A program made the translations under genes and the position numbers. DNA of 64,000 bases. Origin: Candidatus Omnitrophota bacterium (GTDB lineage: Bacteria; Omnitrophota; Gorgyraeia; Gygaellales; Profunditerraquicolaceae). Shown here piece after piece: positions 7,821 to 27,068 of the stretch; within the stretch, counting starts at the first letter, position 1, and each line of letters begins with the position of its first letter. The stretch lies in the NCBI GenBank assembly GCA_041650495.1, contig JBAZLB010000004.1:39281-103280 (forward strand). The letters run 5' to 3'. The notes under the pieces are model-generated. The model searched no databases. It was not told the origin of the DNA and saw only the letters and a list, made by a program, of their open reading frames with translations.

Positions 7821-8828
7821 TTAATAAATGTACACTTCTGAAGGGTCAAAATTACAATTGACCATGGATTGACAATTCCGTTTGCACTGCGCTATCTTTT
7901 CCCGTATCATTTCCGCTTTTGAGGAATTCCACACGGTGTTAATATCGTCATATTTAATGTTTCCGATCGGTTCCATGTAAAAACATATCCTTATTTCTCC
8001 CGTAGGAGTTATGTTAATGGCCTGGGTGTCAATATGGCACTTTTTCTGCTTAACAAAGTCATTGGGATTATGAAAATATGCTTTAAATACCTGCAGTTGG
8101 GGCAAAGAATTTCCAAGCTTGTTAAACCCGGATTCTTTCATCTTGATAAGCCCGTTCATAATTTTGTCAACTTTTTTAAGGTCTATAGGCCATAAGGAAC
8201 TATACCGGCTGTCAGTATACCAGTGCAAATCTTCTGGTGTACTAAACGGTTGTGTGATAGCCTGAAATCCCATTCCGTCTATCTTGTCATTCTCCTGTAT
8301 CCACCTGACAATATCCACAAGTTCATCAAGGTTTTCATTAGAAATAACGGTGCATATGCCTATCTTTACATCGCTGCTGTATTTATCCAGAAGCTCGATA
8401 GCCCTCATAACCTTCTGATATGCCCCTCTAACACCGCGGAGAGAATCATGGCGGTCTTCCCTGAGACTGTCTAAAGATATATTCACAGTGGTAACGCCTG
8501 AAGCCGCTATGTTCTCTGCCATTGTCTCATCGATAAGGAAGGCGTTAGTAGCAAGTAACGTAACAAAGCCATGTTTATGGGCATAGTTGATTAATTCCAA
8601 TGTTTCCGCACGTGCCAATGGCTCTCCTCCTGCAAAGTTTATTTGGGATTTATCTTTCATAAGAGAACGTAACGAATCAATAAAATACCTCCAGCGCTCT
8701 ATCGTTGGCTCAAGAGGATCCCGGGCCTTGATATCAGATTTCCACTTATAACACATACGACATCGCAAGAAGCAGCTTTCCAATAACGCTATACAGCAAT
8801 AAACAGGAGCTGATATATTTTTTTGCAT
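7821..8828 (-). CDS. Radical SAM protein, family A (MoaA/twitch-like, ~335 aa)
   Basis: N-terminal LLESCFLRCRMCYKW (CxxxCxxC at residues ~17-24), FAGGEPLA, and C-terminal Cys motif CKRNCQSMVNC. Confidence 0.8.
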   Translation of the reverse strand: MQKNISAPVYCCIALLESCFLRCRMCYKWKSDIKARDPLEPTIERWRYFIDSLRSLMKDKSQINFAGGEPLARAETLELINYAHKHGFVTLLATNAFLIDETMAENIAASGVTTVNISLDSLREDRHDSLRGVRGAYQKVMRAIELLDKYSSDVKIGICTVISNENLDELVDIVRWIQENDKIDGMGFQAITQPFSTPEDLHWYTDSRYSSLWPIDLKKVDKIMNGLIKMKESGFNKLGNSLPQLQVFKAYFHNPNDFVKQKKCHIDTQAINITPTGEIRICFYMEPIGNIKYDDINTVWNSSKAEMIREKIAQCKRNCQSMVNCNFDPSEVYIY

Positions 8829-8881
8829 AGGCCCTACGATACCGTCCTTACCATGCAGTGCATTGATAAATACTAACCTAC

Positions 8882-9877
8882 CTACTCAGAGTCTCCATGG
8901 TAATAACAATTGACAAGAAAATGGCAATTTTTATCACACGCCGCAATACGTCTTTTTACCGTATCTGCTTTCTCTGAAAGCCATATATTCTGCATGGTAT
9001 CATCTTTTATGTTTCCTATGTCCCCCATTTCATCGCATAAGGAAACATGGCCATCCCAAGTGATCCTTATGGCATTGTCACCAAGATGGCACCTGCGTGG
9101 TTTTATGAATCCTTGCGGGTTCATTAAGTATAACTTAAATAATTCGAGCTGATATATCGGATTGCCTATTTTGAAGCCATCATGGTGTGACTGTCTTAAC
9201 GCAATCAACTCATCTATAACAAGGTTTGCCGCATTATTATCACTGGGCCATAAACCGGCGTATTCATCCAGAATATGCCACTCCTCAGGCACATGGGCAT
9301 TAAACGGTTTCTGTATTACCTGAAAGATTACGCCGTCTAACTTAGGATGGTTGTAAACCCATTTTGTGAAATATATTATTTCTGAGATGTTAATACCCAT
9401 GATTATCGTAAGGATATTTATGATAGAATCGGGGCAATAACGGTCAATAAGGTCTATTGCCCGCATAGCCCGATCCCAACAGCCTTGCTTGCCTCTCAGA
9501 TAATCATGCGTATACTTATCAAGGCTATCAAGAGAAATACCGATAGTGTTAACCCCTGCCTGCGATATTTCCCTGACCTTATCCTCATCCAATAAATAGG
9601 CATTGGTGGATAGGCAACTTTTAAATCCTAAGTCTTGACAAATCTTAAGGATCCCCAAAAAATTGTGGTTAAGCAGTGGTTCCCCTCCCCCAAAACTAAC
9701 AAAAAACGGGTCTTCTACAAAATCCCGCAGTTCATATAAGAATTTTTTATAGGCCTTAAGATCAAGCCAGTTTGTTTCATGGAATGAACGGGTATCCTGC
9801 CAGATATGGCACATTTTACACCGCAACATACACTGGTGGGATATCGCTATATCGCAATGTCTTGGCTTATATATCAT
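8882..9877 (-). CDS. Radical SAM protein, family A
   Basis: ISHQCMLRCKMCHIW, FGGGEPLL, C-terminal CDKNCHFLVNC. Its start overlaps the upstream gene stop by 4 nt (ATGA coupling). Confidence 0.8.
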   Translation of the reverse strand: MIYKPRHCDIAISHQCMLRCKMCHIWQDTRSFHETNWLDLKAYKKFLYELRDFVEDPFFVSFGGGEPLLNHNFLGILKICQDLGFKSCLSTNAYLLDEDKVREISQAGVNTIGISLDSLDKYTHDYLRGKQGCWDRAMRAIDLIDRYCPDSIINILTIIMGINISEIIYFTKWVYNHPKLDGVIFQVIQKPFNAHVPEEWHILDEYAGLWPSDNNAANLVIDELIALRQSHHDGFKIGNPIYQLELFKLYLMNPQGFIKPRRCHLGDNAIRITWDGHVSLCDEMGDIGNIKDDTMQNIWLSEKADTVKRRIAACDKNCHFLVNCYYHGDSE

Positions 9878-11364
9878 GGATATAGTTGATTAACGTCAGT
9901 GCGTTCAGGAGGAGCATCCTCTTCAAATATTTCAAGATCTAAACATGCATAGACCGGGATACCTAAATCCTCACAGTATTTCACTGCGGTGGTATACCTT
10001 TTCTTCCTGACCTTGTAGGTATTTGTACCATCCAAGGTCATCCAATCAGTATATCCGCGTCCATGAAACATGTACTTGTATTTTAACGGCTCCGCCCTGA
10101 GAGCTGAACCAACAGGTGCCCCGCAAATATTCATACTGCATACCCTATCAATATAGGCAACATTTCTCTTGATATACGCTAACGTTTCCTGGAAATCTTC
10201 CTCTGTTTCTCCCGGATACCCGACAATCAATGCAATATCGTTTCTTATCCCCGCCTCTTTACTGAACCTAAGAAATCTTTCAGCCTCAAAGGCGGTATAT
10301 CCTTTGCCCATAAGTGATAAGACATGGTCAGAAAAACTTTCAAGGCCCAGCGAGAACTCCGTACAGCCCGCTTTTCTTAATTTCAGGAATAACTGCGCAT
10401 CAATTTCTGGCCTTATTTGTGCCTGTCCATACCACTTAACCTGCAATCCCTCATCTACAATACAATCACAAAGCTCTTCAAGAAACTTCAGGTCCGCATT
10501 AAATGCTAAATCATTAAGCCTAAAACAGCTATTATTATACCGACTCTGGTTTAAAACCATTTCTCTTAAAACATGGCCTGCCTTCCGGCAACGATAAGGA
10601 TGTGACAATATTCTATCGCTGCAGAATGTGCAGTTTCGAGTACATCCCTTGCTAAATATGAGCGGGAGCGTAAAATCACAACACAGCATTCCTTCCGTAT
10701 ATAAAGATAAATCAAACCCCTCAAATGTAGGAAATGGGACTGCATCAAGGTCAGTAGGAAGCATGGACTTAATGCAGACTGCCCTGTCCCCCGCGTGGTC
10801 CTTCCACACTCTAAAGATACCCCGATCGGATAACCGCAACTTCCCTTTATCCCTTAGGCCGTTCAATATCTCCAGTAATGCAAATTCTCCGTCTCCTATG
10901 ACAAAATAATCTACGTATCCTTTCACAAAGTCATTTTTTCTTATCTCGTCAAAAAATGTTGCCGGCCCGCCGATGACGATTATTTTATCAGGGGCTTTAT
11001 TCTTTAAAATCCTAAGGATTTGATTTAAAAACGGTATGGAGTCCATTGTAGCCGAAAACCCGATAACCGGCATATCATATGATGCTATTGTATCGCCCAT
11101 GCCTTCAAACAACGGCATATGCCCGTTGCTGGACCGACCCGCCTTCCACCAATGGCTATCATTACCGTTCCACCCCCTTTGCAAAACTCCCGAGTTATAC
11201 AGCTCAATATTTAAATCGCGCACCTCTACCATTATGCCCCTTGATTTTAAAAAGGTAGCCAGATACGCTATACCCAAAGGCGCCACCCGATGATCCCAGG
11301 GGGGCAATTGGATCAACAAGATACCGGGTAATTCTTGCCTCCTTTTCTTAAACAGATTCAGCAT
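9874..11364 (-). CDS. B12-binding domain radical SAM protein (class B)
   Basis: 496 aa. The N-terminal Rossmann-like B12-binding region (VIGFSATMD...IIVIGGPATF) is followed by the rSAM core FSKGCTRNCTFCSD (CxxxCxxC). Confidence 0.75.
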   Translation of the reverse strand: MLNLFKKRRQELPGILLIQLPPWDHRVAPLGIAYLATFLKSRGIMVEVRDLNIELYNSGVLQRGWNGNDSHWWKAGRSSNGHMPLFEGMGDTIASYDMPVIGFSATMDSIPFLNQILRILKNKAPDKIIVIGGPATFFDEIRKNDFVKGYVDYFVIGDGEFALLEILNGLRDKGKLRLSDRGIFRVWKDHAGDRAVCIKSMLPTDLDAVPFPTFEGFDLSLYTEGMLCCDFTLPLIFSKGCTRNCTFCSDRILSHPYRCRKAGHVLREMVLNQSRYNNSCFRLNDLAFNADLKFLEELCDCIVDEGLQVKWYGQAQIRPEIDAQLFLKLRKAGCTEFSLGLESFSDHVLSLMGKGYTAFEAERFLRFSKEAGIRNDIALIVGYPGETEEDFQETLAYIKRNVAYIDRVCSMNICGAPVGSALRAEPLKYKYMFHGRGYTDWMTLDGTNTYKVRKKRYTTAVKYCEDLGIPVYACLDLEIFEEDAPPERTDVNQLYP

Positions 11365-11373
11365 GTCTTATTA

Positions 11374-12381
11374 CTATGTGACAGGTTCACAAATTTTAGG
11401 GAAATCTTTTTGGAATTCATCAAAACAATTTATCAGGTGGTGGCAATTCTTTGTACAGCCGGCGATATCATTTCTTACCTTACCTGCTTTTTCTGAGTAC
11501 CAAACGTCTATAAGGCGGTCGCTCTTAATGTTGCCTATGCGTTCAAAATCATAACATAAATAGATATCCCCGACGGAACTGACCAAAACGCACCTATCAA
11601 GATTACACTGCCTTCTTTTCAAGAACTTCTTGGGATTTCTGTAATATGACTGAAAGGCCAGCAGTTGGCTAACGGGATTCCCGATCTTAAAGCCTTTGTT
11701 TTTTAGACGGATAAGCTCTGCGATGATCTGTATAGTCCTGGCTGGATTCTTAGGCCAGATAAACCCTAAATCACCATCCCACCAATTATCTTCGGGAAAA
11801 GTATTATTTGGCTGCATCGCTGCCATAAAATTTATCGAACCGATCCTTTTATCCTGATGAGCCCATTCAACCAAATCTAAGATCGTGTCTTGATTAATTT
11901 CATAAAATACGCAACACAGGTTTATATAGAGACCCTCGCAATAGGTATGAAGATAGGCAATGGCATCCATGGCCCTGCGATACACGCCAGTAACTCCCCT
12001 TAAATGATCGTGGACCTCTTCTTTTATACTATCCAGCGATATGCTTATCGACTTTAGGCCTGAGCCTGCTATCTTGCGAGCCATCTCTTCATCAATAAGA
12101 TACCCGTTGGAAGCTATCGAGGTATTAAAGCCCTTATCGACACTAAAACGGATAACATCTAATATCCCGTCAAACATTAACGCCTCCCCGCCTCCAAGAT
12201 CCAATTCAAATGGAAAATCAACCATCTGAGCTAGATCAGAAATACATTGCTTCCAATGTACAAGAGAGGGGGCCTGAGAGTAGTTCTTGACATAAATGTC
12301 ATCTTTCCATTTATAGCACATTTTACATCGCAGCATACATTTGTCGGTAATACCAAAACAACAAAACCCCGGTTTAATCAT
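11374..12381 (-). CDS. Radical SAM protein, family A
   Basis: FCCFGITDKCMLRCKMCYKW, LGGGEALM, C-terminal CTKNCHHLINC. Confidence 0.8.
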   Translation of the reverse strand: MIKPGFCCFGITDKCMLRCKMCYKWKDDIYVKNYSQAPSLVHWKQCISDLAQMVDFPFELDLGGGEALMFDGILDVIRFSVDKGFNTSIASNGYLIDEEMARKIAGSGLKSISISLDSIKEEVHDHLRGVTGVYRRAMDAIAYLHTYCEGLYINLCCVFYEINQDTILDLVEWAHQDKRIGSINFMAAMQPNNTFPEDNWWDGDLGFIWPKNPARTIQIIAELIRLKNKGFKIGNPVSQLLAFQSYYRNPKKFLKRRQCNLDRCVLVSSVGDIYLCYDFERIGNIKSDRLIDVWYSEKAGKVRNDIAGCTKNCHHLINCFDEFQKDFPKICEPVT

Positions 12382-12410
12382 ACTGACCCCCTCCTAAACA
12401 CATAGCCATG

Positions 12411-13457
12411 CTATATGGAGAATGGCAGATCCCCTTCAAAGAAACAATTGAGAAGAAAATGGCAATTCTGCCTGCAGTTTCTCACCGCTTCACGCGCCAG
12501 TTTAGCTTTATGAGAATACCACAAATATTCTATGCTATCTTTCGTTATATTGCCTAATTTATCTTGTTGGAAACAGATAAACACATCACCGACAGAGCTA
12601 ACATGGATCGCCCTGGATAAATTACACTCTGAAATTTTTATAAACCGCTCAGGGCATATAAAATACCTCCTGAAAGCCTTAAGCTGCGACAGATGATTAA
12701 CGATTTTCCATCCCTTTCTTTTAAGCTCTATCAAACGGCCTATCAGATCATAAACCTGTTTTATCTCCTGGGGCCAGAGATGACTGAAATCTTTTTGATA
12801 CCACCTGGAATCCATACCGGTATTATTCGGCTGCATCACTGCCATAAAATAAATCCAGTCCAAGCGGTTATCTCTTTGCACGCGCTCAGTTAATTCCAGG
12901 ATATCCCCGGCACTTAGGCTGCTTATCACACAACAGATTCCTTTTTGCAGCTCAGGACAGTATGTATCTAAATAGTCGACCGCCAGCATAACTCTTTTAT
13001 AAACCCCCTCAACGCCCCTTAAGTAATCATGGGTTGTATCTTTAAAGCTGTCTAAAGATAAATTTATGGTTGTAAGCCCCGATTCGGCTATTGCCTTTGC
13101 AAGCGGCTCGTCAATCAAGTAGGCATTTGTAGCAATATTGGTCTTCAACCCTATGTTACCGGCAAATCTTACTAGTTCTAACAACTCTTCCATTAAAAAA
13201 GGCTCACCCCCGCCGAAATTAACCGTAAAACCACTGCCCGCTAATTTACGGATAGAGGCGATTGCATTTCTCCAGTCAGTAACCGTAGGATGGTTATTTC
13301 TCGGGGGCAACGCTGACACATCATCTTTCCATTTAAAGCACATCCGGCACTTTAAAGTGCACCGTTCAGTTACGCTCAGGCAGCAAAAATTTGGCCTTGT
13401 CTGCTGACCGGGGAGATTTTCTAGCCATTTAACCGTATTTATGAATAACTTTCGCAC
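12411..13457 (-). CDS. Radical SAM protein, family A
   Basis: CCLSVTERCTLKCRMCFKW, FGGGEPFLM, C-terminal CRQNCHFLLNCFFEGD. Confidence 0.8.
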   Translation of the reverse strand: MRKLFINTVKWLENLPGQQTRPNFCCLSVTERCTLKCRMCFKWKDDVSALPPRNNHPTVTDWRNAIASIRKLAGSGFTVNFGGGEPFLMEELLELVRFAGNIGLKTNIATNAYLIDEPLAKAIAESGLTTINLSLDSFKDTTHDYLRGVEGVYKRVMLAVDYLDTYCPELQKGICCVISSLSAGDILELTERVQRDNRLDWIYFMAVMQPNNTGMDSRWYQKDFSHLWPQEIKQVYDLIGRLIELKRKGWKIVNHLSQLKAFRRYFICPERFIKISECNLSRAIHVSSVGDVFICFQQDKLGNITKDSIEYLWYSHKAKLAREAVRNCRQNCHFLLNCFFEGDLPFSI

Positions 13458-13460
13458 GGG

Positions 13461-14456
13461 CTATTCCTTTTGAATACCGGACGGCAACAAATTTCGTTTG
13501 AACATCTCTTTCAGAATTACGTTTGCAGCTAATTCATGCCCCTTCACATTAGGATGCAAGCCGTCTCCTATGCTTAATTCACCTACCGTAACTTTGGCAT
13601 TGAGAAAAGTAGGAGTCAAATCCAGAGAAGTTATATGCAAGTCTCTGATGATTTCGCGTATATAAGCATACCTGGTATTATCCTGTTCATTATACGGATC
13701 TTTCATGTAGGGGAATACCGCAACAAAAAATGATACCCCTCTTTCGGCTAAAAGGTCCCGCATTCGAGTTAATGATTCCTTGACTATCCGATAGCACTTT
13801 TCCTTCTCATCGAAATTTTCCCGAAAATATAGGAAGAAAATGATGCGCCGGTAAAGATAAGAATATTTAAACAACAATGGATTGATAAAACCAGCCGCAT
13901 CGTTTCGCGGCCAATAGACTACCGGCCTTCCCTTGTCCTTAATCACCACTGGAGTTACCTGAAAATCGTTTAAGCAAAATTGAAGAAGGACTAAGTCGGG
14001 CTTAAAATTAATACACCTCTGCTGTAAAAACGCTAATTCCTGCGCCGTATTATACCCCGGGACCCCGCAATTCCATATCTCAATATGCCCTGTTTTATCC
14101 TTTAAGGCATCTTCGATAAATTTCACATAAGTCATACCGCCGCCGCCGGTAATAGAATCACCTAATGCTATGATCCTGAATTCAGAGGCCTTTTTTTCTA
14201 TAGTTCGTTCCCTGTCAAATATGCCCAATGAATTTACTTTATATCCCCCGCTGCCTCTGCGGGGAATTAACTCATACCCCATAGCTCTAGACGCCTTTAT
14301 AAGAGTTGGAAGATCGGCGCTGTCATGTTTCCATTCTTCACTTGAAGTATCAAAAAATGGTTGGTAACCAATAGGCTGCAGTATCCGGGCACCCGCCTCT
14401 ATAAGCAGAAGCGAGAGAAAAACTGATACCACCGACAATGCAATATTTTGTTTCAC
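13461..14456 (-). CDS. SGNH/GDSL-family hydrolase (secreted or membrane-anchored)
   Basis: Signal-like N-terminus, block I IIALGDSITGGGG, block V IGDGLHPNVKGHELAANVI. The stop lies 4 nt before the upstream rSAM start. Confidence 0.65.
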   Translation of the reverse strand: MKQNIALSVVSVFLSLLLIEAGARILQPIGYQPFFDTSSEEWKHDSADLPTLIKASRAMGYELIPRRGSGGYKVNSLGIFDRERTIEKKASEFRIIALGDSITGGGGMTYVKFIEDALKDKTGHIEIWNCGVPGYNTAQELAFLQQRCINFKPDLVLLQFCLNDFQVTPVVIKDKGRPVVYWPRNDAAGFINPLLFKYSYLYRRIIFFLYFRENFDEKEKCYRIVKESLTRMRDLLAERGVSFFVAVFPYMKDPYNEQDNTRYAYIREIIRDLHITSLDLTPTFLNAKVTVGELSIGDGLHPNVKGHELAANVILKEMFKRNLLPSGIQKE

Positions 14457-14465
14457 GTCTTATCC

Positions 14466-16199
14466 TTATCGTAATATCTTCAACAAAGAGATAAAAGCCC
14501 GCTGCGCCAAATCACTCTCATACTTCAATTGAACTTCCGGGACAGATTTTATTGCACCCGTATCTGCAAAAAGATACTGTAGATCGCCTTTTAATCTCTG
14601 CCGGGTTATTACAATAAGATAATCGTTTTTAGTTACCGCTTGGAGAAAATCCGGGGATGATCTCCAAAAAGTCTCTACCCGGTATTTTTTCTGCAAGAAA
14701 ACCCTGATTAAATGCCCCATACGCATACTCATATCAGCGACCCACATCCCACGGAACCGCGGCGACTCTCCATCAAAAATAATTATACCCGGGACATAGT
14801 TTAAACCGGAATTATTATCATAATCTATGGTTTCGGCAATATGCCTAGCTGCCTCAATAAAATTTGATTTGACAGGCCGATGTGCGATAATCCCTTCTTC
14901 TAAATTCTCAAGGTAATGACGCCGAGAATAAGAAAAATACGAATAAAACAGTACAGTTATTATGCCCAAGGTCACTATGCTGTATTCCTTCCATTGCTGC
15001 TGTTTTAAAAAACGCTCAAGAAAAAAACCTGAACTTAAGGCAAAAAGAGGCAAAAGCGGCACTATAAAACTTCCCCATTTGATATGAAACAGCGTCAAAA
15101 GTATATAGCTCACACAAAACCATACCCCAAAAGATAACCGGGTTTGAAAGGATAACGCCCTGTCCTTCAATAGCCAAACTAAAGATAAGGCCCCGAGCAG
15201 GAAAAATAACGGGGAGGTGTAGTACATTATTTCCATGATGTAGAACAAAAAAGTATTTATGTTTATCCCCGCGTTAATTGTCTGGGTGCACGGACAAAAG
15301 GCATCTTGTGAGGCAAAAAGAAAAAGCTCTTTCCTCCCGTCAGCGACACTGCCGACCCAATTGCTTGATTTGAATACCAGGCTTTTACATGCCTCTATAA
15401 ATCCGTCCTTAAGATTCAAAAAAACATGCGCATAATTATTATCAAAATAAAGACCGAAAAATATCGCTGCAAGAAATAAAAAAATTACCGCATCCAATAT
15501 ATGCCTTGCCCTTAACTTAGGATCCAACAAAACAATCCCCGCGTGTAAACAGAATAAAGGGATAAAGAATACCAGATAAAGTCCTCCCGATAACACGCCG
15601 CAGATAAAAATAAAAGCTAAGAACACGGAGCGCAATACGGCCGGCATATACTTCCAGCGGAGAAAAATAAGTATAGAAATAAGCACAAAGAACGTAACAA
15701 GCAATGCAGAGTTTGTTTTCCGGGAAAGGCCGACCATGCCGGGGTAAAATGATAAGATAAGGGCTGACCTTATTCCTATTTGCTCACTAAAAATAACCTT
15801 GCCGAATATATATGTTGCAACAAGTACCAGCATAAACTGCAAAAATAAAACAATATTGATTAAAAATAATTTATGGCCGCCCGAAAGAGGCGCCATAATA
15901 GGAAAGGCAACGGCTAAAGATGCCAAATTAAAGTTAATTGCGGAGAAGGCATAGCCAAAATGGCTTACTTTTAGGAAATCCATGGTCTTAAATAATTTTT
16001 CCGCCGCAGACAAACGGTCATTAGCGATCATATCGCTATATTCAAATGCATTCTCTTCATGCCATACCGAATAACAGCCGTGCTGTATATAACCATCTTT
16101 TGAAAACCAGAAGATGTTATTGCAGAAAAGAAATAATATGAAAACAGCTGCGCTGATTCTTCTGTCGTGCAGGATTTGCTTAACGCTATTATGCGGCAT
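14466..16199 (-). CDS. Polytopic integral membrane protein; possible GT-C-type (ArnT/PMT-like) glycosyltransferase or polymerase
   Basis: 577 aa with 10 or more hydrophobic helices throughout and a C-terminal soluble region. No catalytic motif was recognised. The call rests only on architecture and context (glycan genes). Confidence 0.35.
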   Translation of the reverse strand: MPHNSVKQILHDRRISAAVFILFLFCNNIFWFSKDGYIQHGCYSVWHEENAFEYSDMIANDRLSAAEKLFKTMDFLKVSHFGYAFSAINFNLASLAVAFPIMAPLSGGHKLFLINIVLFLQFMLVLVATYIFGKVIFSEQIGIRSALILSFYPGMVGLSRKTNSALLVTFFVLISILIFLRWKYMPAVLRSVFLAFIFICGVLSGGLYLVFFIPLFCLHAGIVLLDPKLRARHILDAVIFLFLAAIFFGLYFDNNYAHVFLNLKDGFIEACKSLVFKSSNWVGSVADGRKELFLFASQDAFCPCTQTINAGININTFLFYIMEIMYYTSPLFFLLGALSLVWLLKDRALSFQTRLSFGVWFCVSYILLTLFHIKWGSFIVPLLPLFALSSGFFLERFLKQQQWKEYSIVTLGIITVLFYSYFSYSRRHYLENLEEGIIAHRPVKSNFIEAARHIAETIDYDNNSGLNYVPGIIIFDGESPRFRGMWVADMSMRMGHLIRVFLQKKYRVETFWRSSPDFLQAVTKNDYLIVITRQRLKGDLQYLFADTGAIKSVPEVQLKYESDLAQRAFISLLKILR

Positions 16200-16231
16200 G
16201 GATCGGCCTACTGCGAAGTATGATTATCGTT

Positions 16232-17278
16232 TCATATAACCTGGAACGGATAATCACCTTCAAAAAAACAATTTAAAAGATGATGGCAGTTTCTTTTGCA
16301 ATTTATTATATTATTTCTAACGGCGCATGCCTTCTTAGAATACCAGGCCATAGCCAGGTCATCATGCATGATATTGCCTATCCTTTCCCACTCATAGCAT
16401 ATGTATATATTGCCAATTGCATCCACATGGACTGCGCGATCCAAATTACAGGCTGTCTTCTTTACGAATCTATCGGGGGAATCAAAATATTGTTTAAACG
16501 CTTCCAGCTGACAAAATTGGTTATTTATCTTAGACCCCTGTTTTTTCATCCCGATTAAACGATCTATAACGGTTGTTATCCGTGCGGTATCGTCAGGCCA
16601 TAAATACTGGAATTCTTCCCGGTACCAGCGAGGATTAGGCCTGGTATTATTCGGCTGCATCGCCGCCATAAAATAAACCCATTTAATCCGCGGATGCTTA
16701 TTCACCCATTCCGCAACCGATACAACTTCATCCATATTAATCTTGTATATGACACAACAGATAATAATTTCAAACTCTCCCGGGCAATACTTATCGAGAT
16801 ACTCAATGGCATCCATGACTTTATGGTATACCCCCGGCACTCCACGTAAATAATCATGCGTAGACGGATTCATGCTATCCAGCGAAATATTAATGCTCGA
16901 CAGCCCGGACCTTCCTATTCTGCGAGCCATAGGTTCATCAATCAAGCAAGCGTTGCTGGCGATGTTAGTACGCAAACCGTTCTCTGCAGCAAAATGCACG
17001 ATATCCAATAGCCCTTCTAATAGAAGCGCTTCCCCCCCGCCAAAGTTTATAAGAAAATCCCTGCCCGCTATTGAGCGCAACGACGATATAGCTCTTTTCC
17101 ATAAGGTTATATCCGGTTTCGGTATGTCCCTGGGGACATTAAGGTCGGGTCTCCACTTTTGACACATTTTGCAGCGTAAAAAACACTCATCGACTACGCC
17201 AAAACAACAGAAACCAGGCCTTAATGTAGCCCGGAAATCCATCTTGACATCCTCGCTGCTATTGATTTGTCCGCTCAT
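16232..17278 (-). CDS. Radical SAM protein, family A
   Basis: FCCFGVVDECFLRCKMCQKW, FGGGEALLL, C-terminal CKRNCHHLLNCFFEGD. This is the closest paralog of 12411..13457. Confidence 0.8.
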   Translation of the reverse strand: MSGQINSSEDVKMDFRATLRPGFCCFGVVDECFLRCKMCQKWRPDLNVPRDIPKPDITLWKRAISSLRSIAGRDFLINFGGGEALLLEGLLDIVHFAAENGLRTNIASNACLIDEPMARRIGRSGLSSINISLDSMNPSTHDYLRGVPGVYHKVMDAIEYLDKYCPGEFEIIICCVIYKINMDEVVSVAEWVNKHPRIKWVYFMAAMQPNNTRPNPRWYREEFQYLWPDDTARITTVIDRLIGMKKQGSKINNQFCQLEAFKQYFDSPDRFVKKTACNLDRAVHVDAIGNIYICYEWERIGNIMHDDLAMAWYSKKACAVRNNIINCKRNCHHLLNCFFEGDYPFQVI

Positions 17279-17293
17279 GGAAGATATATTATC

Positions 17294-18502
17294 CTAAAAC
17301 CACTCCACCGTGGCTAAGGTTTTCAACAGCCTGACTTGTACTGGGCTGAGTTTATTTATCTTTTGATGCATGATCATATTCCTTCCTAAGTCATCGCAAC
17401 TTTTATAACAACCGATTTTCTTACCGGGGTCATTGCCTATAAAAGAAAGTAAATCATGGTCTTTTACTTTCGACTGCATGCATCTGCGGAACATCCGCTG
17501 TTTTGCATTATTCCATATTTTATCAAAATTATCTTTGTATAAATTCCCTATCGGGATCCTATGTGATTTAAGGCAGGAATTGACATTGCCATCAGCCAAA
17601 ACCCGGGCAAAAAGCCACCCAACATAACAGGGGATACTATCAATAAAACCGCGGTCATACTCTGCGGCACCTGCGTATTCGCTCTCTACGCGCCTCATAA
17701 ATTGTTCAAAATTAGAAATAATCAGCCGGCCTTTCTGAGTACAATATTCCTTATTCTCTTTCATAAGCCTGCACATCGCCAAGACATCATCAGCTTGGCC
17801 CTGCTGAAATAATAACGTATCGGTACACCCGGGGATAGTATCAACTACAGTAAATTCAACTTCTTCAGAAGCTGTTTCCAAGCAAAACTCGGCCATTTTA
17901 AGCAATTCTTGGTAATTTAAGTTAGAGATGACATTATAGATCTTTACTTTAGGAAAACACCCCTTGGTTCTATTGAGCAAGGTGAGTAGCTGCCTTATGC
18001 GTATAAAGTCATCCTGCGTTTTATTAGGATGTGTTTTTACATAAGTTTCCGCTGTAGCCGCCCATAAGCTTACAACAAGATAATCGAGTTTTATCCGTTT
18101 GAATGCCGCTAACATATCTTCGTCCACTAAAGTAAAATTTGTATGTAGGTGACACTTAAATCCCCGTTTCTTAGCATAAGAGATTATCTCTATGGCCGCC
18201 GGGTGCATTAAAGGTTCCCCTCCCCCGCTGAAATATAATTCCGCAGTATGCATTTTCTTAAGGGTATCTATCAAGCGTTTAGCCACTCGGTAATCAATAC
18301 TCTGCCGTTTAACGGCTTGGGGGGTCGCTTTATCTTTCAGTAATGGCGAGTTACACCAACAGGCAATGCAATTATTGTTGCAGTCATTCGTTAAATCAAT
18401 CTGGACGCAATCCGGCCCTTTATACGCATATTCGCCATTAAATATGCCCATAATAGTCATGGCGTTTCTTAGTGTCTTGCCGCAAATGAGGCTTTTATTC
18501 AT
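17294..18502 (-). CDS. Radical SAM protein, family B-like (402 aa, SPASM-like C-terminus)
   Basis: DLTNDCNNNCIACW (CxxxCxxC), FSGGGEPLMHP. The C-terminus IPCYVGWLFARVLADGNVNSC...GCYKSCDD is alignable to the C-termini of 3534..5261 and 21179..22636. Confidence 0.7.
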   Translation of the reverse strand: MNKSLICGKTLRNAMTIMGIFNGEYAYKGPDCVQIDLTNDCNNNCIACWCNSPLLKDKATPQAVKRQSIDYRVAKRLIDTLKKMHTAELYFSGGGEPLMHPAAIEIISYAKKRGFKCHLHTNFTLVDEDMLAAFKRIKLDYLVVSLWAATAETYVKTHPNKTQDDFIRIRQLLTLLNRTKGCFPKVKIYNVISNLNYQELLKMAEFCLETASEEVEFTVVDTIPGCTDTLLFQQGQADDVLAMCRLMKENKEYCTQKGRLIISNFEQFMRRVESEYAGAAEYDRGFIDSIPCYVGWLFARVLADGNVNSCLKSHRIPIGNLYKDNFDKIWNNAKQRMFRRCMQSKVKDHDLLSFIGNDPGKKIGCYKSCDDLGRNMIMHQKINKLSPVQVRLLKTLATVEWF

Positions 18503-18518
18503 GCCATCAGGGATACTT

Positions 18519-20981
18519 TTATTGTTGAATATTCAGTAAATACTTTATGCTTTTTATGACGGTACGCACAAAACCTTTTGATTTTATATTATTCCTAAAG
18601 GCAACCCGTAATTCCCGGTCAAACGGTATATTATAGAAAGAGCGCCGCGAGCGCATATAGTATTTCCACTTCTTCAATGCTTCGTCTTTGGCATGTTCTA
18701 AATCTTCCGGAGAAAGAAATTCGGTTCTGATGACGCTTCTTGATGCCCCGTCATAACAAGACCAGTCTTTCGAGATAATATGCCCCTTCTTTTCCAGCGC
18801 CTCATAATATTCTGTCCCCGGGTAAGGAGTCATAATGGAGAACTGCAGGGAATCAGGCTTAAAACTTAACGCGTAGTCTATTGTCCTTTTTATGGTATCC
18901 TGTGTTTCCCCGGGCAGGCCAAAGGCAAAAGTGAGGTGTATCTTTATCCCTAAGGCTTGAGTCGCATATATCATACGTTCCGCATGCCGCAAATCCATGC
19001 CCTTCTTCGCGTTATCAAGCAGCTTCTGTTCTGCGGACTCTAATCCATACTTTACTGCGTATAATCCGGATTGTTTCATCGCAAGAAGCATTTCTTCATC
19101 CATAGTATCCGCGCGGGCCATAATCGCCCAAGGCACAACCAAGTTTCTCTCCCGGATCTCCCCGCAAAACTTTAATACATTTTCTTTGTCAATATTGAAG
19201 GTATCATCGTCAAAATAAATCGACTTAAAATTACGTTCTTTTACCAGGTATTCCATCTCATCGACAACAGCGGCGGGACTGCGGACCCGGTAGCGGTTGC
19301 TATTATACATGAGCTGCGGCCAGGCGCAAAAAATGCATTGGAAAGGACACCCCCGGCTTGCAACCATCTGAACACTAGGAAAAGCGATCTTCCCGGGCGC
19401 ATCTTTATACCGTTCCATACATAATTGTTCTCTTAATGGCCATGGCAAATCATCCAAATCCTCAAGTAAGGCTCGCGCAGGGGTGATCCTGACAGTATTG
19501 TTTTCCCGATAAAGGATTCCTGATACGCCCTGCAGACTTCTGCCGTTCTGTATGGCTTGGAATAATTCAAATGCCGCGTATTCATATTCACCGACAATAA
19601 CAAAATCTATAAAATTGTTCTCGGCCAGGAAAGATGGCTGCCTGATATTAAAGTCTAGCCCGCAAACAGCTATTTTTGTATGTTTTCCTGATATTTGCTT
19701 TAAGATTTCCAGGTCATTCTTCAAAGAGGGGGTAGAGACCTCCGCAACCAACAGTTCCGGCTCAAGCTCATTCACCAGCCTTACAAATTCTCCTTCTTCG
19801 ATCTGCTCAGCTATGGCGTCAATTATTCTTACGCTAACGCCTCTTTCCAAAAAGACAGCTGCGGAATAAGCCAAAAAGAACGGGAAAGGAAGATACGCCT
19901 CTTCGCCAGCGTCTTTTATATGCGGCCATCGAGACCCTGCCCTGACTCCCCATCTATTCCCCTGTTTCCAAGGCAGGTTTATTAACACTACCTTCACAGG
20001 CTTTAGGACATTCGTTAAATATTTCTTATTCATCTTCTCTTCTATGAATGGCAGCCGTTGGCGGTATAATCTCTTCTTGGAATCAAGCATATGTTGATCG
20101 ATTATTTTTTCATCTTGAATTATGTGTATGCTATTTGACAAAATATTCCGGCTCATGCCAGCCGCATAAAAATCCCGCGGACTATGCGGCTTAACCTGAA
20201 TTAATAATGCGCGTAAATTCGCGCTATAATCACTATTCCTGATAATAGGCCTTATGTCTTCCTTTGGGCTATCCGCCTCCAAAATAATCGCTGGTTTATA
20301 CTCATTATTGCAAAACGTGCTCCGCACTCCCAAAGAACGCGAGGAAAGATTCCAAAAATTTATATCCTGCCATCCTTCTTGCGTAGGTTTTATCGGTGGA
20401 AATGTCCCCCCTTCATAAGAACTTATCCAGCCGGTATAATCTGAAGATACCAAAAGAGCCGCTTCCTTTTCTCCGAGAGAAATATTTCTTTTAGGGGTTA
20501 TGTCTATCTTCCAATCGATAAGCCTCTCTCCTTGCACCGTAATCTGCCAAGACTGTTTAAGCGCAAAGAAAGGCCAGGTGAGTATTATTTCCGTATAACA
20601 AGGCAAAACACGTAGTACCTCCCAGCGCGCCTGATTCGAATATAGCCTGCCGCGCATAAAACGCTTATCATTCAGCACAGTTACAAAACCCGGGGCTTGA
20701 GTAAGCTTTATGTCATTCCAAAATAAATCTATACACCTACGCGCAGGATGAATCGATAACTTTAATCTACCGGCAATTAATAATATTGTCCGGGCGTCTT
20801 CTTGGCAACCAAGCTTAGAACTAATAAACCGCGAGAATATATACCGCAGGCCACCATTACCTATGGTATAGACGATAAACGCAAAGGCGCGATAAAAAGC
20901 ATAGAACACCCCCTTATGGCGAAGGTAATATAAGAATCTTCCGGCTATAAAATTGATAAATCCTTGTTTATGTATTTTCAT
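18519..20981 (-). CDS. B12-binding radical SAM protein (class B) with ~330-aa N-terminal domain of unknown function
   Basis: 820 aa. A B12-binding-like region (VLINLPW...IAVCGLDFN) is followed by ASRGCPFQCIFCAWP (CxxxCxxC). The N-terminal third has no recognisable motif. Confidence 0.7.
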   Translation of the reverse strand: MKIHKQGFINFIAGRFLYYLRHKGVFYAFYRAFAFIVYTIGNGGLRYIFSRFISSKLGCQEDARTILLIAGRLKLSIHPARRCIDLFWNDIKLTQAPGFVTVLNDKRFMRGRLYSNQARWEVLRVLPCYTEIILTWPFFALKQSWQITVQGERLIDWKIDITPKRNISLGEKEAALLVSSDYTGWISSYEGGTFPPIKPTQEGWQDINFWNLSSRSLGVRSTFCNNEYKPAIILEADSPKEDIRPIIRNSDYSANLRALLIQVKPHSPRDFYAAGMSRNILSNSIHIIQDEKIIDQHMLDSKKRLYRQRLPFIEEKMNKKYLTNVLKPVKVVLINLPWKQGNRWGVRAGSRWPHIKDAGEEAYLPFPFFLAYSAAVFLERGVSVRIIDAIAEQIEEGEFVRLVNELEPELLVAEVSTPSLKNDLEILKQISGKHTKIAVCGLDFNIRQPSFLAENNFIDFVIVGEYEYAAFELFQAIQNGRSLQGVSGILYRENNTVRITPARALLEDLDDLPWPLREQLCMERYKDAPGKIAFPSVQMVASRGCPFQCIFCAWPQLMYNSNRYRVRSPAAVVDEMEYLVKERNFKSIYFDDDTFNIDKENVLKFCGEIRERNLVVPWAIMARADTMDEEMLLAMKQSGLYAVKYGLESAEQKLLDNAKKGMDLRHAERMIYATQALGIKIHLTFAFGLPGETQDTIKRTIDYALSFKPDSLQFSIMTPYPGTEYYEALEKKGHIISKDWSCYDGASRSVIRTEFLSPEDLEHAKDEALKKWKYYMRSRRSFYNIPFDRELRVAFRNNIKSKGFVRTVIKSIKYLLNIQQ

Positions 20982-21044
20982 TATGATAAAAAGGCGGTGT
21001 CTATGTTTAACTTTTTGCAGATTCTTTGTGCTTTATCTTATCTT

Positions 21045-21107
21045 TCAACCCACAAGAACCCTATCCGCCACATAATATACTTTAAGCCCCGGTAAAAAGA
21101 GTAACAT
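21045..21107 (-). CDS. Candidate 20-aa small ORF (MLLFLPGLKVYYVADRVLVG) in the only sizeable intergenic gap of the rSAM array
   Basis: ATG preceded by GAGGG at -6 to -10. It lies in the 197-bp gap between the family-B rSAM and the class-B rSAM. There is no Cys and no homolog support. It is a speculative precursor-peptide or leader candidate. Confidence 0.15.
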   Translation of the reverse strand: MLLFLPGLKVYYVADRVLVG

Positions 21108-21178
21108 AAGCCGCCCTCTTTATAATGCTTTTTCCATCTCTGCAATAGTGTTTCTCGCATGGTAAGTATATTTATTTA

Positions 21179-22636
21179 TTACAGGAACTTCTCCAGCGAG
21201 TATCTTTTAATAATCTTGAGCATATGAAGATGCTGATTAATGTTCTCGCAGGAATGGCATTTGTCATCAAATAACTCTTCTCCGCGGACAAACCTAGTCC
21301 CTCCTTCCTGTTCTAAACGTTTTGCTGCAATTCGATACGAATTGTACTCATCAGAGAACCATATAGTATCAAAATCAGATCTTTGCAAGCTGCCGACCAT
21401 TTTGTTTCCGCAGCAAAAAAGAACCTCCCCTGCCGCCTGGATGTTACAGAATACCCACCCTGTTAAGCACCCGTTATCTTTAAAAAAATCCTTCGTCCTT
21501 AACCCATCGCGGTTGTTATAGTAATCCAAATAAATAGTGGATAAATGATCTGTCCTGATCCCGTGGTTTTCTAATTTTTTTATTGACGCTGGCAAGTTAG
21601 TCTTGAGATAATCAACCTGCGGTTCGGTTAATTTAAGATAAGCATTGTGTCCTTCAATCTGAATTGGTTTAAATGTCACCGCATCGACCCCAAGGTCAAT
21701 ATCCATATCCACAAAGCTTGACAAATCGTAACAATTAAGACTATGTATGACATGGGTTATCTGAATCTGGGTCGTCCCTTTTGAGGTGTTTTTATATTCT
21801 ACAAGCGACCTTATATTATGCCTGATCTTTTCAAAATCGCTCATTGGGCTCATTGGGCAGATTTGATGGTATCGCAGCCTAGAGGCAGCAGGAAGGCTAA
21901 CCGTAACAATAGCTATTCCGGAATCAACCATCAGTTTTGAAAGCGCATCATTCATAAAAACCCCGTTGGTCACTGTCTCAAACCCCAAGCCATTATCCCG
22001 GCAGATACGGATAGCATCTTTTATATTCGGGTGCATCAGCGGTTCGCCGTTGGCAAGCAGGCTTATCTGTCGTGTACCTATTTTCTTCGCCCTCACTGCA
22101 ATATTTCTAAACATATCGATACCCATCGTCTGCCGGAGATAGGCGATATCTTTCTCCTGGGTACTCGGCGCATGAATCCAACAATGCAAACAATTAGTAT
22201 TGCATCTATGCAACAAGTCAACGACAACTAAAGACGGGCCGATAAACGTATCTTCACAAATAGCGCCTAGCGCCATTAAAACATCCTGCCTGGTATCGTC
22301 ATCAGTCTCTTTTATCTTGCTTAGACCTAAAAGCAGCTGCGCCAATTCCCGGTCATCCAATAGAATTTGGATACAAAATTTGGAAAGCCTGGCATTCATT
22401 GTACTGATATATTCCATCCAACGCATTAGTATATTATCCGTAGGAAAGACTGAGAAAGGATCGACCTCCTCCACTGCGGGCATTCTTTCGCGTAACAAGC
22501 AATCCAGTCTTAAGAAATTGTATTTATTCGCTCGCAATAATCCTGCCGCTGTTTTGTAAAAACCGCCCTTACTATTAAGGGTACAATGAGAACGCTCTGC
22601 AAATTTGAGGTATCGTGCGGATAAACCAGGCAACAT
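21179..22636 (-). CDS. Radical SAM protein, family B (SPASM-like) with N-terminal extension
   Basis: LHRCNTNCLHCW (CxxxCxxC), ANGEPLMHP. The C-terminus is GCLTGWVFCNIQAAGEVLFCCGN...DDKCHSCEN. Its N-terminal region is alignable to the N-terminus of 3534..5261 (AEHAFIGPQT / CEDTFIGPSL). Confidence 0.75.
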   Translation of the reverse strand: MLPGLSARYLKFAERSHCTLNSKGGFYKTAAGLLRANKYNFLRLDCLLRERMPAVEEVDPFSVFPTDNILMRWMEYISTMNARLSKFCIQILLDDRELAQLLLGLSKIKETDDDTRQDVLMALGAICEDTFIGPSLVVVDLLHRCNTNCLHCWIHAPSTQEKDIAYLRQTMGIDMFRNIAVRAKKIGTRQISLLANGEPLMHPNIKDAIRICRDNGLGFETVTNGVFMNDALSKLMVDSGIAIVTVSLPAASRLRYHQICPMSPMSDFEKIRHNIRSLVEYKNTSKGTTQIQITHVIHSLNCYDLSSFVDMDIDLGVDAVTFKPIQIEGHNAYLKLTEPQVDYLKTNLPASIKKLENHGIRTDHLSTIYLDYYNNRDGLRTKDFFKDNGCLTGWVFCNIQAAGEVLFCCGNKMVGSLQRSDFDTIWFSDEYNSYRIAAKRLEQEGGTRFVRGEELFDDKCHSCENINQHLHMLKIIKRYSLEKFL

Positions 22637-25534: not shown

Positions 25535-26317
25535 TCAGATTTGTTTTAAAGCATCCTTCTCTTTTTTCGTGAATATGTAATGGCCCAGCCATATGCTCGC
25601 CAAGCTAAATCCAAACGCAAACAACCACATAACGCTGTCTCCTTTTGAGCCGTTATAAAGTATAGCGCGATAAAGAAGGGTATAACAGGTAGCTGGATTT
25701 GCAATCATAATAACCTGATGCCCCTTTGAGATACTTTCTAAAGGGTAAAATATGGGGGTCAACCAAAATAAAAACATTAAACCAATATTCAATAACTGCG
25801 CTAAATCCTTATAATAGAGATTACCGATGCTTACCATGAGCGATATGCCCAATGTAAAAACAAAGTGGAGCAGCAGGACGAGCGGCAATAATGCTAAGGA
25901 ATTTATGATTCTGGTATTACATAGAATAAAAACGGGCAAGAGACCTATAAAACCAACTAAAAAATTTACAAAGTTTGCTAAAACCACCGAGAGGGGTATT
26001 GCCTCATTCATAATAACGAACTGATTTAATACGGCACTATTATTCTTAATGGAAACTGCCGCTTCTGATAATGAGTTTGCAAAGAAAGACCAGGCCAAGA
26101 GAGCACTCAATATAAAAAGGGGGAAATTACTTATCCGGGTAGGCATTATTTGTGTGAAAACGAAGTTAATGGCACACATAATAAGCAGGGGATTAAGAAC
26201 TGCCCAAAAAATACCTATGGTAGAGCCAATATATTTATCACTTAAATTACGCTGCACCAGGCTCTTAATTACGTTTTTCTGTGCGCTTATCTTAACAAGT
26301 TTATCTCGTAGAGTCAT
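25535..26317 (-). CDS. ABC-2 type transporter permease (Wzm/TagG-like)
   Basis: 260 aa with 6 predicted TM helices in the ABC-2 arrangement. It lies directly upstream of the Wzt-like ATPase. Confidence 0.7.
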   Translation of the reverse strand: MTLRDKLVKISAQKNVIKSLVQRNLSDKYIGSTIGIFWAVLNPLLIMCAINFVFTQIMPTRISNFPLFILSALLAWSFFANSLSEAAVSIKNNSAVLNQFVIMNEAIPLSVVLANFVNFLVGFIGLLPVFILCNTRIINSLALLPLVLLLHFVFTLGISLMVSIGNLYYKDLAQLLNIGLMFLFWLTPIFYPLESISKGHQVIMIANPATCYTLLYRAILYNGSKGDSVMWLFAFGFSLASIWLGHYIFTKKEKDALKQI

Positions 26318-27015: not shown

Positions 27016-27068
27016 CGCTAAACCTATATAGGCCTCATCATTCTGAGGGTTTATCTCTATTTTCTTCT

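Follow-up and report, generated by a model that had tools for sequence, protein, structure and literature searches.

A candidate radical-SAM glycan-tailoring operon in Omnitrophota whose exporter ATPase and B12-type enzyme share a galactose-mutarotase-fold module

Radical S-adenosylmethionine (SAM) enzymes are known to act on sugars in a handful of antibiotic and hopanoid pathways; to our knowledge, extensive radical modification of sugars has so far been encountered chiefly in antibiotics and in the head groups of hopanoids, and not in cell-surface polymers. In the hopanoid pathway HpnJ contracts the glucosamine ring of bacteriohopanetetrol (BHT)-glucosamine to a cyclitol ether, and the enzyme co-clusters with MoeK5 and Fom3 in a published similarity network (PMC9204698); HpnJ domains have been reported only in genomes that also encode squalene-hopene cyclase (SHC) and HpnH (PMC12324291). 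AprD4, whose structure has been solved with paromamine, belongs to the apramycin pathway, in which it serves as a radical-SAM 1,2-diol dehydratase acting on an aminoglycoside sugar. In classic Wzm/Wzt systems the C-terminal carbohydrate-binding domain (CBD) of Wzt reads the chemically modified terminus of the polymer prior to export (PMC9445017). Here we describe an operon from an uncultured Candidatus Omnitrophota bacterium, located in a window of 64,000 nucleotides (64 kb, the whole stretch of DNA that was analysed) of contig JBAZLB010000004.1. It encodes 11 radical-SAM proteins, of which two (820 and 496 aa) contain B12-type domains, together with a Wzm/Wzt-type ATP-binding cassette (ABC) exporter. 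A module of about 225-230 aa, designated X, is present both in the 820-aa enzyme and in the ATPase of the exporter. We place at roughly 60% the probability that the cassette produces a radical-SAM-tailored, ABC-exported surface glycan for which X is the shared recognition module.

The N-terminal third of the 820-aa protein had been described in a first-pass annotation of the window as lacking a recognizable motif. At the level of sequence this holds, as neither the extension nor X matched any Pfam or NCBIfam family, even at E ≤ 10, and X represents a family without an existing model. The fold, however, is readily recognized. In the full-length AlphaFold model (mean predicted local distance difference test score 86.6) residues 3-56 are helical, 66-288 form an all-beta domain and 291-316 a linker helix, after which come a Rossmann-like domain (331-500), a barrel (536-730) and a C-terminal helical cap, the N-terminal 330 aa being made up of three helices, a galactose-mutarotase-like supersandwich and the linker helix. 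The supersandwich, which is X, matches this fold structurally at an identity of only 5-14%. Known domains of the type comprise the aldose 1-epimerases, the accessory domains of GH2, GH15, GH31, GH36, GH38, GH65, GH94 and GH97 enzymes, domains of polysaccharide lyases and OpgG/OpgD; X differs from them, beyond its low identity, in residing on radical-SAM barrels and an ABC ATPase rather than on glycoside hydrolases. Over the four copies in the window and 46 homologues the conserved residues of X are T94, G98, S115, W120, Q143, W145, Y182, W185, F194, W204, G218, R220 and F281, and the list includes neither His nor Glu nor Asp, a pattern that points to binding rather than to mutarotase catalysis. 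The catalytic His/Glu of aldose 1-epimerases is likewise lacking from X, as is a match to the Pfam family Aldose_epim. It had been proposed that the N-terminal third is a substrate-binding or membrane-association module. The fold, and the fact that it is shared with the exporter tail, look like substrate recognition, whereas membrane association is not borne out, a simple Kyte-Doolittle hydropathy scan having detected no transmembrane (TM) segment in the 820-aa protein.

In BLASTP comparisons within the operon residues 82-258 of the 820-aa protein matched residues 495-667 of the Wzt-like ATPase (E 2e-12; 6e-14 for the best X comparison of the two proteins), and the same X matched two other segments of the ATPase tail more weakly (E 7e-6 and 0.002), indicating that this tail consists of three tandem copies of X. 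The ATPase and its neighbour form a Wzm/Wzt-type exporter, in which an ABC-2 permease (PF01061) lies adjacent to a Wzt/TagH-type nucleotide-binding domain (NBD; PF00005). The best PDB matches of the pair are to Wzm/Wzt of Aquifex aeolicus (6oih/7k2t/8dku): the NBD is closest to A. aeolicus Wzt (E 4e-60), followed by TarH and TagH, and the permease to A. aeolicus Wzm (E 1.5e-19), while the best NCBIfam matches were to TagH and to galactan Wzt/Wzm models, all under their cut-offs. The resemblance extends to a C-terminal extension after the NBD at the position of the CBD. Alignment with A. aeolicus Wzt goes no further than residue 251 of its 404-residue chain, the point at which the CBD of that protein begins, and beyond the NBD neither a canonical CBD of about 150 aa nor a Wzt_C-type Pfam match was found, the tail being composed of the three X modules. 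As the X array thus occupies the position of the glycan-binding CBD, which in classic Wzt reads the modified terminus, X probably acts in the manner of a carbohydrate-binding module (CBM) that recognizes the polymer.

When 1.84 billion representative proteins were searched with a profile built from the four copies in the window, 563 representatives were retrieved (444 at E ≤ 1e-10), usually with two to seven copies each. Among the best 150 of the 563, 86 have the architecture ABC-X(1-6); the others include X arrays alone (many of them probably gene fragments), X-SPASM, X-B12 radical-SAM, PMT_2 (GT-C)-X-X and one sulfatase-family-X-X protein. In the GT-C fusions X follows 7-10 TM segments, and the sulfatase fusion carries a signal or anchor at its N terminus, suggesting that X also acts outside the cytoplasm. 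Among 120 homologues of the 820-aa enzyme X is found once at the N terminus (about 750-830 aa), twice at the N terminus (about 1070 aa) or at the C terminus (about 715-740 aa), and in B12 radical-SAM-X-SPASM-X fusions of about 1400 aa it lies between catalytic domains; the single X module of the 820-aa protein corresponds to two in its closest relatives, which are about 1070 aa long. Among GTDB species representatives, the family motifs GVRAGSRWP and YLPFPFFLA were found in at least 462 loci. Most are from Omnitrophota or from metagenome-assembled genomes (MAGs) of the Planctomycetes-Verrucomicrobia-Chlamydiae (PVC) group labelled Planctomycetia, and a few are labelled Patescibacteria, Margulisiibacteriota, Caldisericota, Woesearchaeota, Aminicenantes or Coatesbacteria. 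Of the best 80 of these loci, surveyed with the B12 enzyme as seed, 66 contain X, which is joined to the B12 core in 44 and to a SPASM enzyme in 14, and 38 have a second B12 radical-SAM class (B12b). Where the upstream sequence extends to 6 kb or more (42 loci), a Wzt-X gene lies upstream in 25. The number of radical-SAM genes in those loci that exceed 15 kb has a median of four and reaches 13 at most. The genes recur in the order Wzm, Wzt-Xn, (X-SPASM_C), X-B12 or B12-X(-SPASM_B-X), SPASM_B, zero to nine SPASM_A, B12b and GT4. When Wzt-X was the seed, radical-SAM genes lay directly downstream in three of four contexts (L087, L088 and L090), and in the fourth (L089) the contig ends within an unannotated 645-aa gene directly downstream.

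The first-pass annotation had considered tailoring of a lipid or of a glycan. The genomic context strongly favours the glycan: the operon itself contains Wzm/Wzt, GT4, GT-C-like and GDSL genes, and related loci contribute a WecA-type transferase (PF00953), GT2, GT4, GT9, PMT_2, a carbamoyltransferase and a Wzy_C (WaaL-type) protein, accompanied by an amino-oxidase-family flavoprotein, a DegT aminotransferase, an NDP-sugar epimerase and GH5. Modification of a lipid finds little support in this context.

Turning to the catalytic cores, both open reading frames (ORFs) have, as had been noticed at the outset, a Rossmann-like region ahead of a CxxxCxxC motif, which in the 496-aa protein is CTRNCTFC (residue 241) and in the 820-aa protein CPFQCIFC (residue 545); the motifs originally quoted for the two ORFs are present (LIFSKGCTRNCTFCSD and MVASRGCPFQCIFCAWP; in letters, FSKGCTRNCTFCSD and ASRGCPFQCIFCAWP). 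The CxxxCxxC motif falls within the core of PF04055 in each, with Radical_SAM scores of 57.7 bits (496 aa) and 63.0 bits (820 aa) against a cut-off of 29.5, placing both proteins in the radical-SAM superfamily. The B12-binding family PF02310 was detected in the 496-aa protein (40.3 bits, cut-off 32.1) but fell slightly short of the cut-off in the 820-aa protein (30.4 bits, E 3.7e-7), in which NCBIfam models of B12 radical-SAM enzymes span residues 348-779 end to end and the AlphaFold model matches AprD4, TsrM, OxsB, CysS and TokK in Foldseek. Within the Rossmann-like domain of the 820-aa protein lie an invariant loop, GVRAGSRWPH, a glycine on beta4 (G441) and the pair G464-E465 where alpha5 begins. 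We therefore take both proteins to belong to the B12-binding-domain (class B) radical-SAM group, the 496-aa protein through PF02310 and the 820-aa protein through NCBIfam, model and Foldseek; hidden Markov models (HMMs), motifs and model thus uphold the original classification. The 820-aa protein scored highest with the HpnJ model TIGR03471 (263.1 bits, E 5e-78; equivalog cut-off 577.6), followed by BchE TIGR02026 (175.4 bits, cut-off 481.35), a Sden_1168-type P-methylase (140 bits), the ladderane-associated lipid B12 radical-SAM model TIGR04072 (115 bits) and AprD4 NF033070 (107.8 bits, cut-off 500), with further matches to ApyD and PhpK. The 496-aa protein is more divergent from these models: its top match is a C-methyltransferase subfamily of peptides synthesized ribosomally and modified after translation (RiPPs; TIGR03975, 112.7 bits, cut-off 281.85), and it scored 87.1 bits with BchE TIGR02026 and 25.8 bits with AprD4 NF033070, below both cut-offs. 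As judged from sequence and model, both are genuine members of the B12-domain radical-SAM group and neither falls inside a characterized family.

HpnJ, the top-scoring curated family for the 820-aa core, has the same layout of Rossmann-like, radical-SAM and C-terminal helical domains and a substrate with a sugar moiety. The Omnitrophota protein differs from HpnJ in its additional 330 aa of helices and X, in its Wzm/Wzt glycan context and in a score far below the equivalog cut-off, and no hopanoid genes (SHC, HpnH) were present in the window or in the sampled loci. AprD4 (PDB 6fd2) is the closest solved structure both by sequence (E 1.2e-25) and by fold (Foldseek E 2e-25; TM-score 0.81 normalized to AprD4; 23% identity). 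It neither binds cobalamin (PMC12931638) nor contains X, whereas the 820-aa protein keeps the Gly-beta4 and Gly-Glu motifs that align with cobalamin (Cbl)-bound TokK. With GenK, MoeK5, Fom3-type enzymes, TokK, TsrM, OxsB and CysS the 820-aa protein has its domain order in common, and the GG and GE motifs of the Cbl tail align; the identity to these class-B methylases and other Cbl-dependent radical-SAM enzymes is, however, 14-18% and the downstream Cbl motif differs. Sequence does not distinguish methylase from rearrangement chemistry. The nearest named or solved relatives of the core act on sugars, so that, by analogy, the 820-aa enzyme could plausibly methylate a sugar at carbon, rearrange its ring or dehydrate it.

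In OxsB, TsrM and TokK the tail of Cbl is contacted by two motifs, a Gly(-Gly) on beta4 and a Gly-Glu where alpha5 begins (PMC9204698). In phmmer alignments with TokK, which are weak (E 4.5e-4 and 0.49), both proteins display these motifs, G441 and G464-E465 of the 820-aa protein, and IGGP and GDGE of the 496-aa protein, aligning with the aGGp and GEGE of TokK. The downstream motif is GFSAT (GxSxT) in the 496-aa protein and a divergent AEVSTPS in the 820-aa protein, in which E414 and P418 align with S72 and W76 of TokK. The retained Gly-beta4 and Gly-Glu motifs, the GxSxT of the 496-aa protein and the higher HMM scores with HpnJ and BchE than with AprD4 favour genuine, albeit putative, cobalamin dependence of the two enzymes. 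Across the phylum cobalamin biosynthesis has been described as 'present but not universal' (PMC10066038). The only TP_methylase (tetrapyrrole-methylase-family) gene in the window was considered as a cobalamin gene and rejected, as it encodes RsmI.

These elements can be assembled into a pathway in which a lipid-linked glycan would be built at the cytoplasmic face of the membrane, with X, as a CBM-like module, keeping the radical enzymes and the exporter ATPase on the lipid-linked polymer. The B12-type enzymes would perform radical chemistry on sugar residues, through C-methylation or through ring rearrangement or dehydration of the HpnJ/AprD4 kind, and the SPASM paralogues would introduce additional radical edits. 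Through its own X modules Wzt could capture the tailored polymer, which would finally be exported by Wzm/Wzt, and in other genomes X on GT-C and sulfatase fusions might keep periplasmic enzymes on the polymer after export.

Several points weigh against this reading. The supersandwich fold is also found in the P1 domain of YidC and in the NDH subunit PnsB2, which have no known sugar role, and the fold alone is thus no proof of glycan binding. The NCBIfam matches of the cores are all far under the family cut-offs, so the reaction cannot be transferred by homology. With regard to cobalamin, PF02310 is sub-threshold in the 820-aa protein, and AprD4, the closest solved relative of its core, and ArsL-type enzymes possess similar Rossmann-like domains yet do not bind the cofactor (PMC12931638); neither a cobalamin riboswitch nor cob/btu genes were found in the 64-kb window. 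The window itself also contains no initiating PF00953 transferase and no sugar-nucleotide genes, the organism is uncultured, and both ligand and product are inferred. Finally, when nearest neighbours were determined among 230 X modules, in a co-variation test that compared enzyme-borne copies with the Wzt-borne copies of their own loci, an enzyme-borne X was closest to the Wzt-X of its own locus in none of 37 cases. Across genomes the modules instead paired by carrier (Wzt-Wzt 91, B12-B12 55, SPASM-SPASM 28), indicating that the X fusions are ancient. A simple model in which all copies of X read one strain-specific epitope is therefore not supported. Clustering by carrier fits a feature of the polymer conserved across the phylum, X subtypes for different intermediates, or docking between proteins.

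The last of these explanations is the main rival, which we regard as unlikely. It retains the glycan pathway, and sees in X a docking or scaffold domain whose contacts with other copies of X, or with other partners, recruit the radical-SAM enzymes to the Wzt tail in a metabolon for modification and export. The presence of the same module on the transporter (one to six copies) and on several classes of enzyme would be expected from such a scaffold, ancient carrier-specific subtypes without co-variation within a locus fit conserved heterotypic protein interfaces, and in many glycoside hydrolases, in YidC and in PnsB2 the supersandwich domains have structural or oligomerization roles. Docking does not readily explain, however, why X is also attached to a sulfatase-family enzyme with a signal or anchor and to the C termini of multi-TM GT-C proteins, locations that are probably periplasmic and away from the cytosolic tail of Wzt. 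Nor does the number of X copies on Wzt match in any obvious way the number of X-bearing enzymes per locus, and the array sits exactly where classic Wzt has its glycan-binding CBD.

It could also be argued that the cassette tailors a membrane lipid, of hopanoid, ladderane or membrane-spanning type, which the ABC-2 transporter would then move. The matches of the 820-aa core to HpnJ and to TIGR04072 point in this direction, as do those of the SPASM paralogues to the tetraether synthase Tes model (50-68 bits), and radical-SAM enzymes are prominent in lipid modification (PMC13459092). We consider this reading improbable. The HpnJ, ladderane and Tes matches all lie far below the family cut-offs, and HpnJ works on a sugar head group and not on the lipid. 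Neither SHC and HpnH nor fatty-acid or isoprenoid genes were seen in the window or the sampled loci; the transporter is closest to O-antigen Wzm/Wzt and then to teichoic-acid (TarGH/TagH) and galactan Wzm/Wzt exporters, its neighbours include glycosyltransferases, and the fold of X is associated with carbohydrates.

A catalytic role for X itself, for example as a mutarotase or epimerase whose action on the sugar precedes or follows the radical step, would account for its fold but appears more improbable still. Aldose 1-epimerases use His/Glu catalysis and mutarotases span about 290-340 aa; X, with about 225 aa and the low identity given above, offers no invariant His, Glu or Asp for such a mechanism, and a tandem arrangement of two to six copies on the tail of an ATPase is what binding modules typically show. 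The least probable alternative is a RiPP cluster, with a ribosomal peptide matured by the SPASM and B12 radical-SAM enzymes and exported by the ABC transporter. In its favour, SPASM enzymes are typically peptide maturases, the best NCBIfam match of the 496-aa protein is to a RiPP C-methyltransferase, tetratricopeptide repeat (TPR) proteins accompany an ABC exporter in the operon, and in two related loci the last SPASM gene is separated from the glycosyltransferases by tiny ORFs of 39, 45 and 53 aa (L005, 17401-17520; L006, 16079-16216 and 18522-18683). Against it, no plausible precursor ORF was found in the window gaps 20981-21179, 28121-29667 and 1-1208, no operon protein matched PqqD/RRE at E ≤ 0.01, the adjacent precursor and RRE/PqqD partner of RiPP maturases thus being undetected in the operon, the exporter is of the Wzm/Wzt ABC-2 type and not a peptide exporter, glycosyltransferases and WecA-type genes are consistent neighbours and X is fused to GT-C enzymes.

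Returning to glycan tailoring with X as the recognition module, a wider proposal can be made, although it falls somewhat short of even odds: that Omnitrophota and a few neighbouring lineages possess an undescribed radical-SAM 'glycan-editing' machinery, in which the CBD of Wzt has been replaced by an X array, X targets up to a dozen radical-SAM enzymes to a lipid-linked polymer, and the product is a surface polysaccharide with C-methyl, deoxy, carbocyclic or cross-linked sugars. The organisms concerned are ultra-small, in many cases depend on a host, and probably attach by means of their surfaces. If the proposal is true, a phylum-wide operon that unites up to 13 radical-SAM enzymes with an O-antigen-type exporter would point to surface glycans of a new class, heavily edited by radical chemistry. 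The unmodelled module of about 225 aa common to exporter and enzymes would provide a testable handle on the coupling of modification to export and, for enzymology, the loci would offer a large natural set of B12-type and SPASM fusion variants with a built-in substrate-targeting domain. Searches of the literature for radical SAM together with Omnitrophota, Wzt/Wzm or O-antigen returned no description of this cassette, which is no proof of absence; papers on Xanthomonas that join Wzm and radical SAM are unrelated to it. Three features of the system are new: a Wzm/Wzt pathway in which the CBD is replaced by an array of mutarotase-fold modules, the occurrence of that module on radical-SAM enzymes as well, and the number of radical-SAM genes, as many as 13 in one locus; the enzymes themselves are new members of a known superfamily.

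The two B12-type genes had been treated as isolated enzymes, a view that does not survive inspection of their surroundings, as they are two of the 11 radical-SAM genes (two B12-type, nine SPASM-type) of one tightly packed operon that occupies about 1-28.1 kb of the window (Table 1). From about 28.1 kb to the left edge all genes are on the minus strand, with overlaps or gaps of 3-112 bp except for a single gap of 197 bp upstream of the 820-aa gene. All 11 radical-SAM genes retain an intact CxxxCxxC, and six of them encode SPASM_A paralogues of about 335 aa with 33-50% mutual identity (BLASTP). In the 5' to 3' direction the operon begins with GDSL+TPR, TPR, ABC-2 permease, the 960-aa ABC ATPase, a SPASM radical-SAM gene (485 aa) and the 820-aa B12 gene; it continues with two SPASM radical-SAM genes (402 and 348 aa), a 577-aa multi-TM protein, GDSL, two further SPASM radical-SAM genes and the 496-aa B12 gene, and ends with two SPASM radical-SAM genes, a TPR+SPASM radical-SAM fusion (862 aa), a SPASM radical-SAM gene (575 aa), a GDSL-like protein, GT4 and a secreted protein with a GH2-type Ig-like domain.

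Table 1. Positions of the operon genes and of the segments of the 820-aa protein in the window, in the direction of transcription
Feature	Position	Strand	Basis and remarks
GDSL+TPR gene, split into 27069-28121 and 26314-27015 by a 1-nt indel	26314..28121	-	
Wzm-type ABC-2 permease	25535..26317	-	Pfam; A. aeolicus Wzm match, E 1.5e-19
Wzt-type ABC ATPase, 960 aa; NBD at residues 24-244, then X modules at 24109-24807, 23359-24087 and 22639-23316	22636..25518	-	Pfam, BLASTP, PDB, NCBIfam
Radical-SAM SPASM protein, 485 aa, SPASM_C class (X-fused in other genomes)	21179..22636	-	Pfam, BLASTP, locus survey
X-B12 radical-SAM enzyme, 820 aa, whole gene	18519..20981	-	ORF list, Pfam, NCBIfam, AlphaFold model; 100% identical to database protein P0001 (Candidatus Omnitrophota MAG)
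820-aa protein, residues 1-56: three N-terminal helices, conserved motif KFxxHLxxxGxxYAxxRGxKY	20814..20981	-	AlphaFold model, homologue consensus
820-aa protein, residues 66-288: X module, galactose-mutarotase-like beta-supersandwich, putative glycan-recognition domain	20118..20786	-	
820-aa protein, residues 291-316: long linker helix joining X to the B12-type domain	20034..20111	-	AlphaFold model
820-aa protein, residues 331-500: Rossmann-like B12-type domain	19482..19991	-	Pfam, homologue consensus, AlphaFold model, TokK alignment
820-aa protein, residues 536-730: radical-SAM partial TIM barrel	18792..19376	-	CPFQCIFC at residue 545; Pfam, AlphaFold model
Radical-SAM SPASM protein, 402 aa, SPASM_B class	17294..18502	-	Pfam, BLASTP, locus survey
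Radical-SAM SPASM protein, 348 aa, SPASM_A paralogue	16232..17278	-	Pfam, BLASTP
Multi-TM protein, 577 aa, GT-C/PMT_2-like	14466..16199	-	No direct Pfam match; sequence match to PMT_2-X-X protein P0224
GDSL/SGNH hydrolase-family protein	13461..14456	-	Pfam
Two SPASM_A paralogues, 11374-12381 and 12411-13457	11374..13457	-	Pfam, BLASTP
Second B12 radical-SAM protein (B12b), 496 aa	9874..11364	-	GFSAT, IGGP and GDGE Cbl-type motifs; CTRNCTFC at residue 241
Two SPASM_A paralogues, 7821-8828 and 8882-9877	7821..9877	-	Pfam, BLASTP; 8882-9877 gene overlaps the 496-aa gene by 4 nt
TPR-repeat and SPASM_A-type radical-SAM fusion, 862 aa	5218..7806	-	Pfam, BLASTP, NCBIfam
Radical-SAM SPASM protein, 575 aa, SPASM_C class, with 225-aa N-terminal extension	3534..5261	-	Pfam, BLASTP, NCBIfam
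GDSL-like protein, weak match	2502..3458	-	Pfam
GT4 glycosyltransferase	1208..2389	-	Pfam

The GDSL+TPR gene is a single gene of 568 aa in a sibling ENA assembly (L004), which is 99.996% identical over 22.5 kb and differs here by one single-base indel; the split in the window is thus either an assembly error or a real frameshift. Within the 197-bp gap lies an ORF of 40 aa (21038-21160, minus strand; MRETLLQRWKKHYKEGGLCYSFYRGLKYIMWRIGFLWVER) that resembles the conserved motif of the N-terminal helices and may be a relic of a rearrangement. At the 3' end, directly downstream of GT4, a partial protein with a signal peptide and a GH2-type Ig-like beta-sandwich (PF00703, 25.9 bits; 1-1194, minus strand) runs off the left edge of the window; it may belong to the cassette as a secreted protein that acts on glycans. 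At the 5' border two short ORFs (70 and 133 aa; 28278-28922, minus strand) retain only the C-terminal part of a GT2 domain and look like a decayed glycosyltransferase gene.

In related loci the radical-SAM enzymes of the cassette are fused unusually often: three or four SPASM-type units form one polypeptide of 1,200-1,400 aa in many of L011, L014, L022, L026, L027, L030, L038, L045, L088 and L090, and B12-B12 and B12-SPASM fusions are also present. Giant genes lie upstream of Wzt-X, within about 8 kb in L088 (1-1966) and about 1.5 kb in L087 (1-8470); one product was called at 45,887 aa and the other exceeds 3,008 aa and contains a Peptidase_S74 domain. Close relatives of the B12 core without X (about 52-54% identity over residues 329-780, approximately) reside on contigs binned as Woesearchaeota or Methanosarcinales (L040, L048, L049, L056, L061 and L076), which could reflect mis-binning or horizontal transfer.

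Elsewhere in the window two matches to the nhaA-I (Na+-sensing) riboswitch were detected on the minus strand at 32176-32226 and 38366-38421 (46.7 and 43.8 bits; Rfam gathering score 37). One lies upstream of a gene for an Rnf/Nqr-family membrane subunit (31132-31740) and the other upstream of the MscS channel gene that heads a trehalose operon (MscS, GT20/OtsA-like, trehalose phosphatase, DUF5752 and TreT); together with these neighbours they look like a sodium/osmotic-stress regulon. The G+C content is about 0.38-0.44 over the first 40 kb or so, which contains the glycan cassette and the transporter and trehalose genes, and about 0.46-0.51 at 40000-64000, where V-type ATPase and pyrimidine genes are located. 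The shift adjoins two tRNA genes (38703-38778 and 38863-38937) and may mark the boundary of an island.

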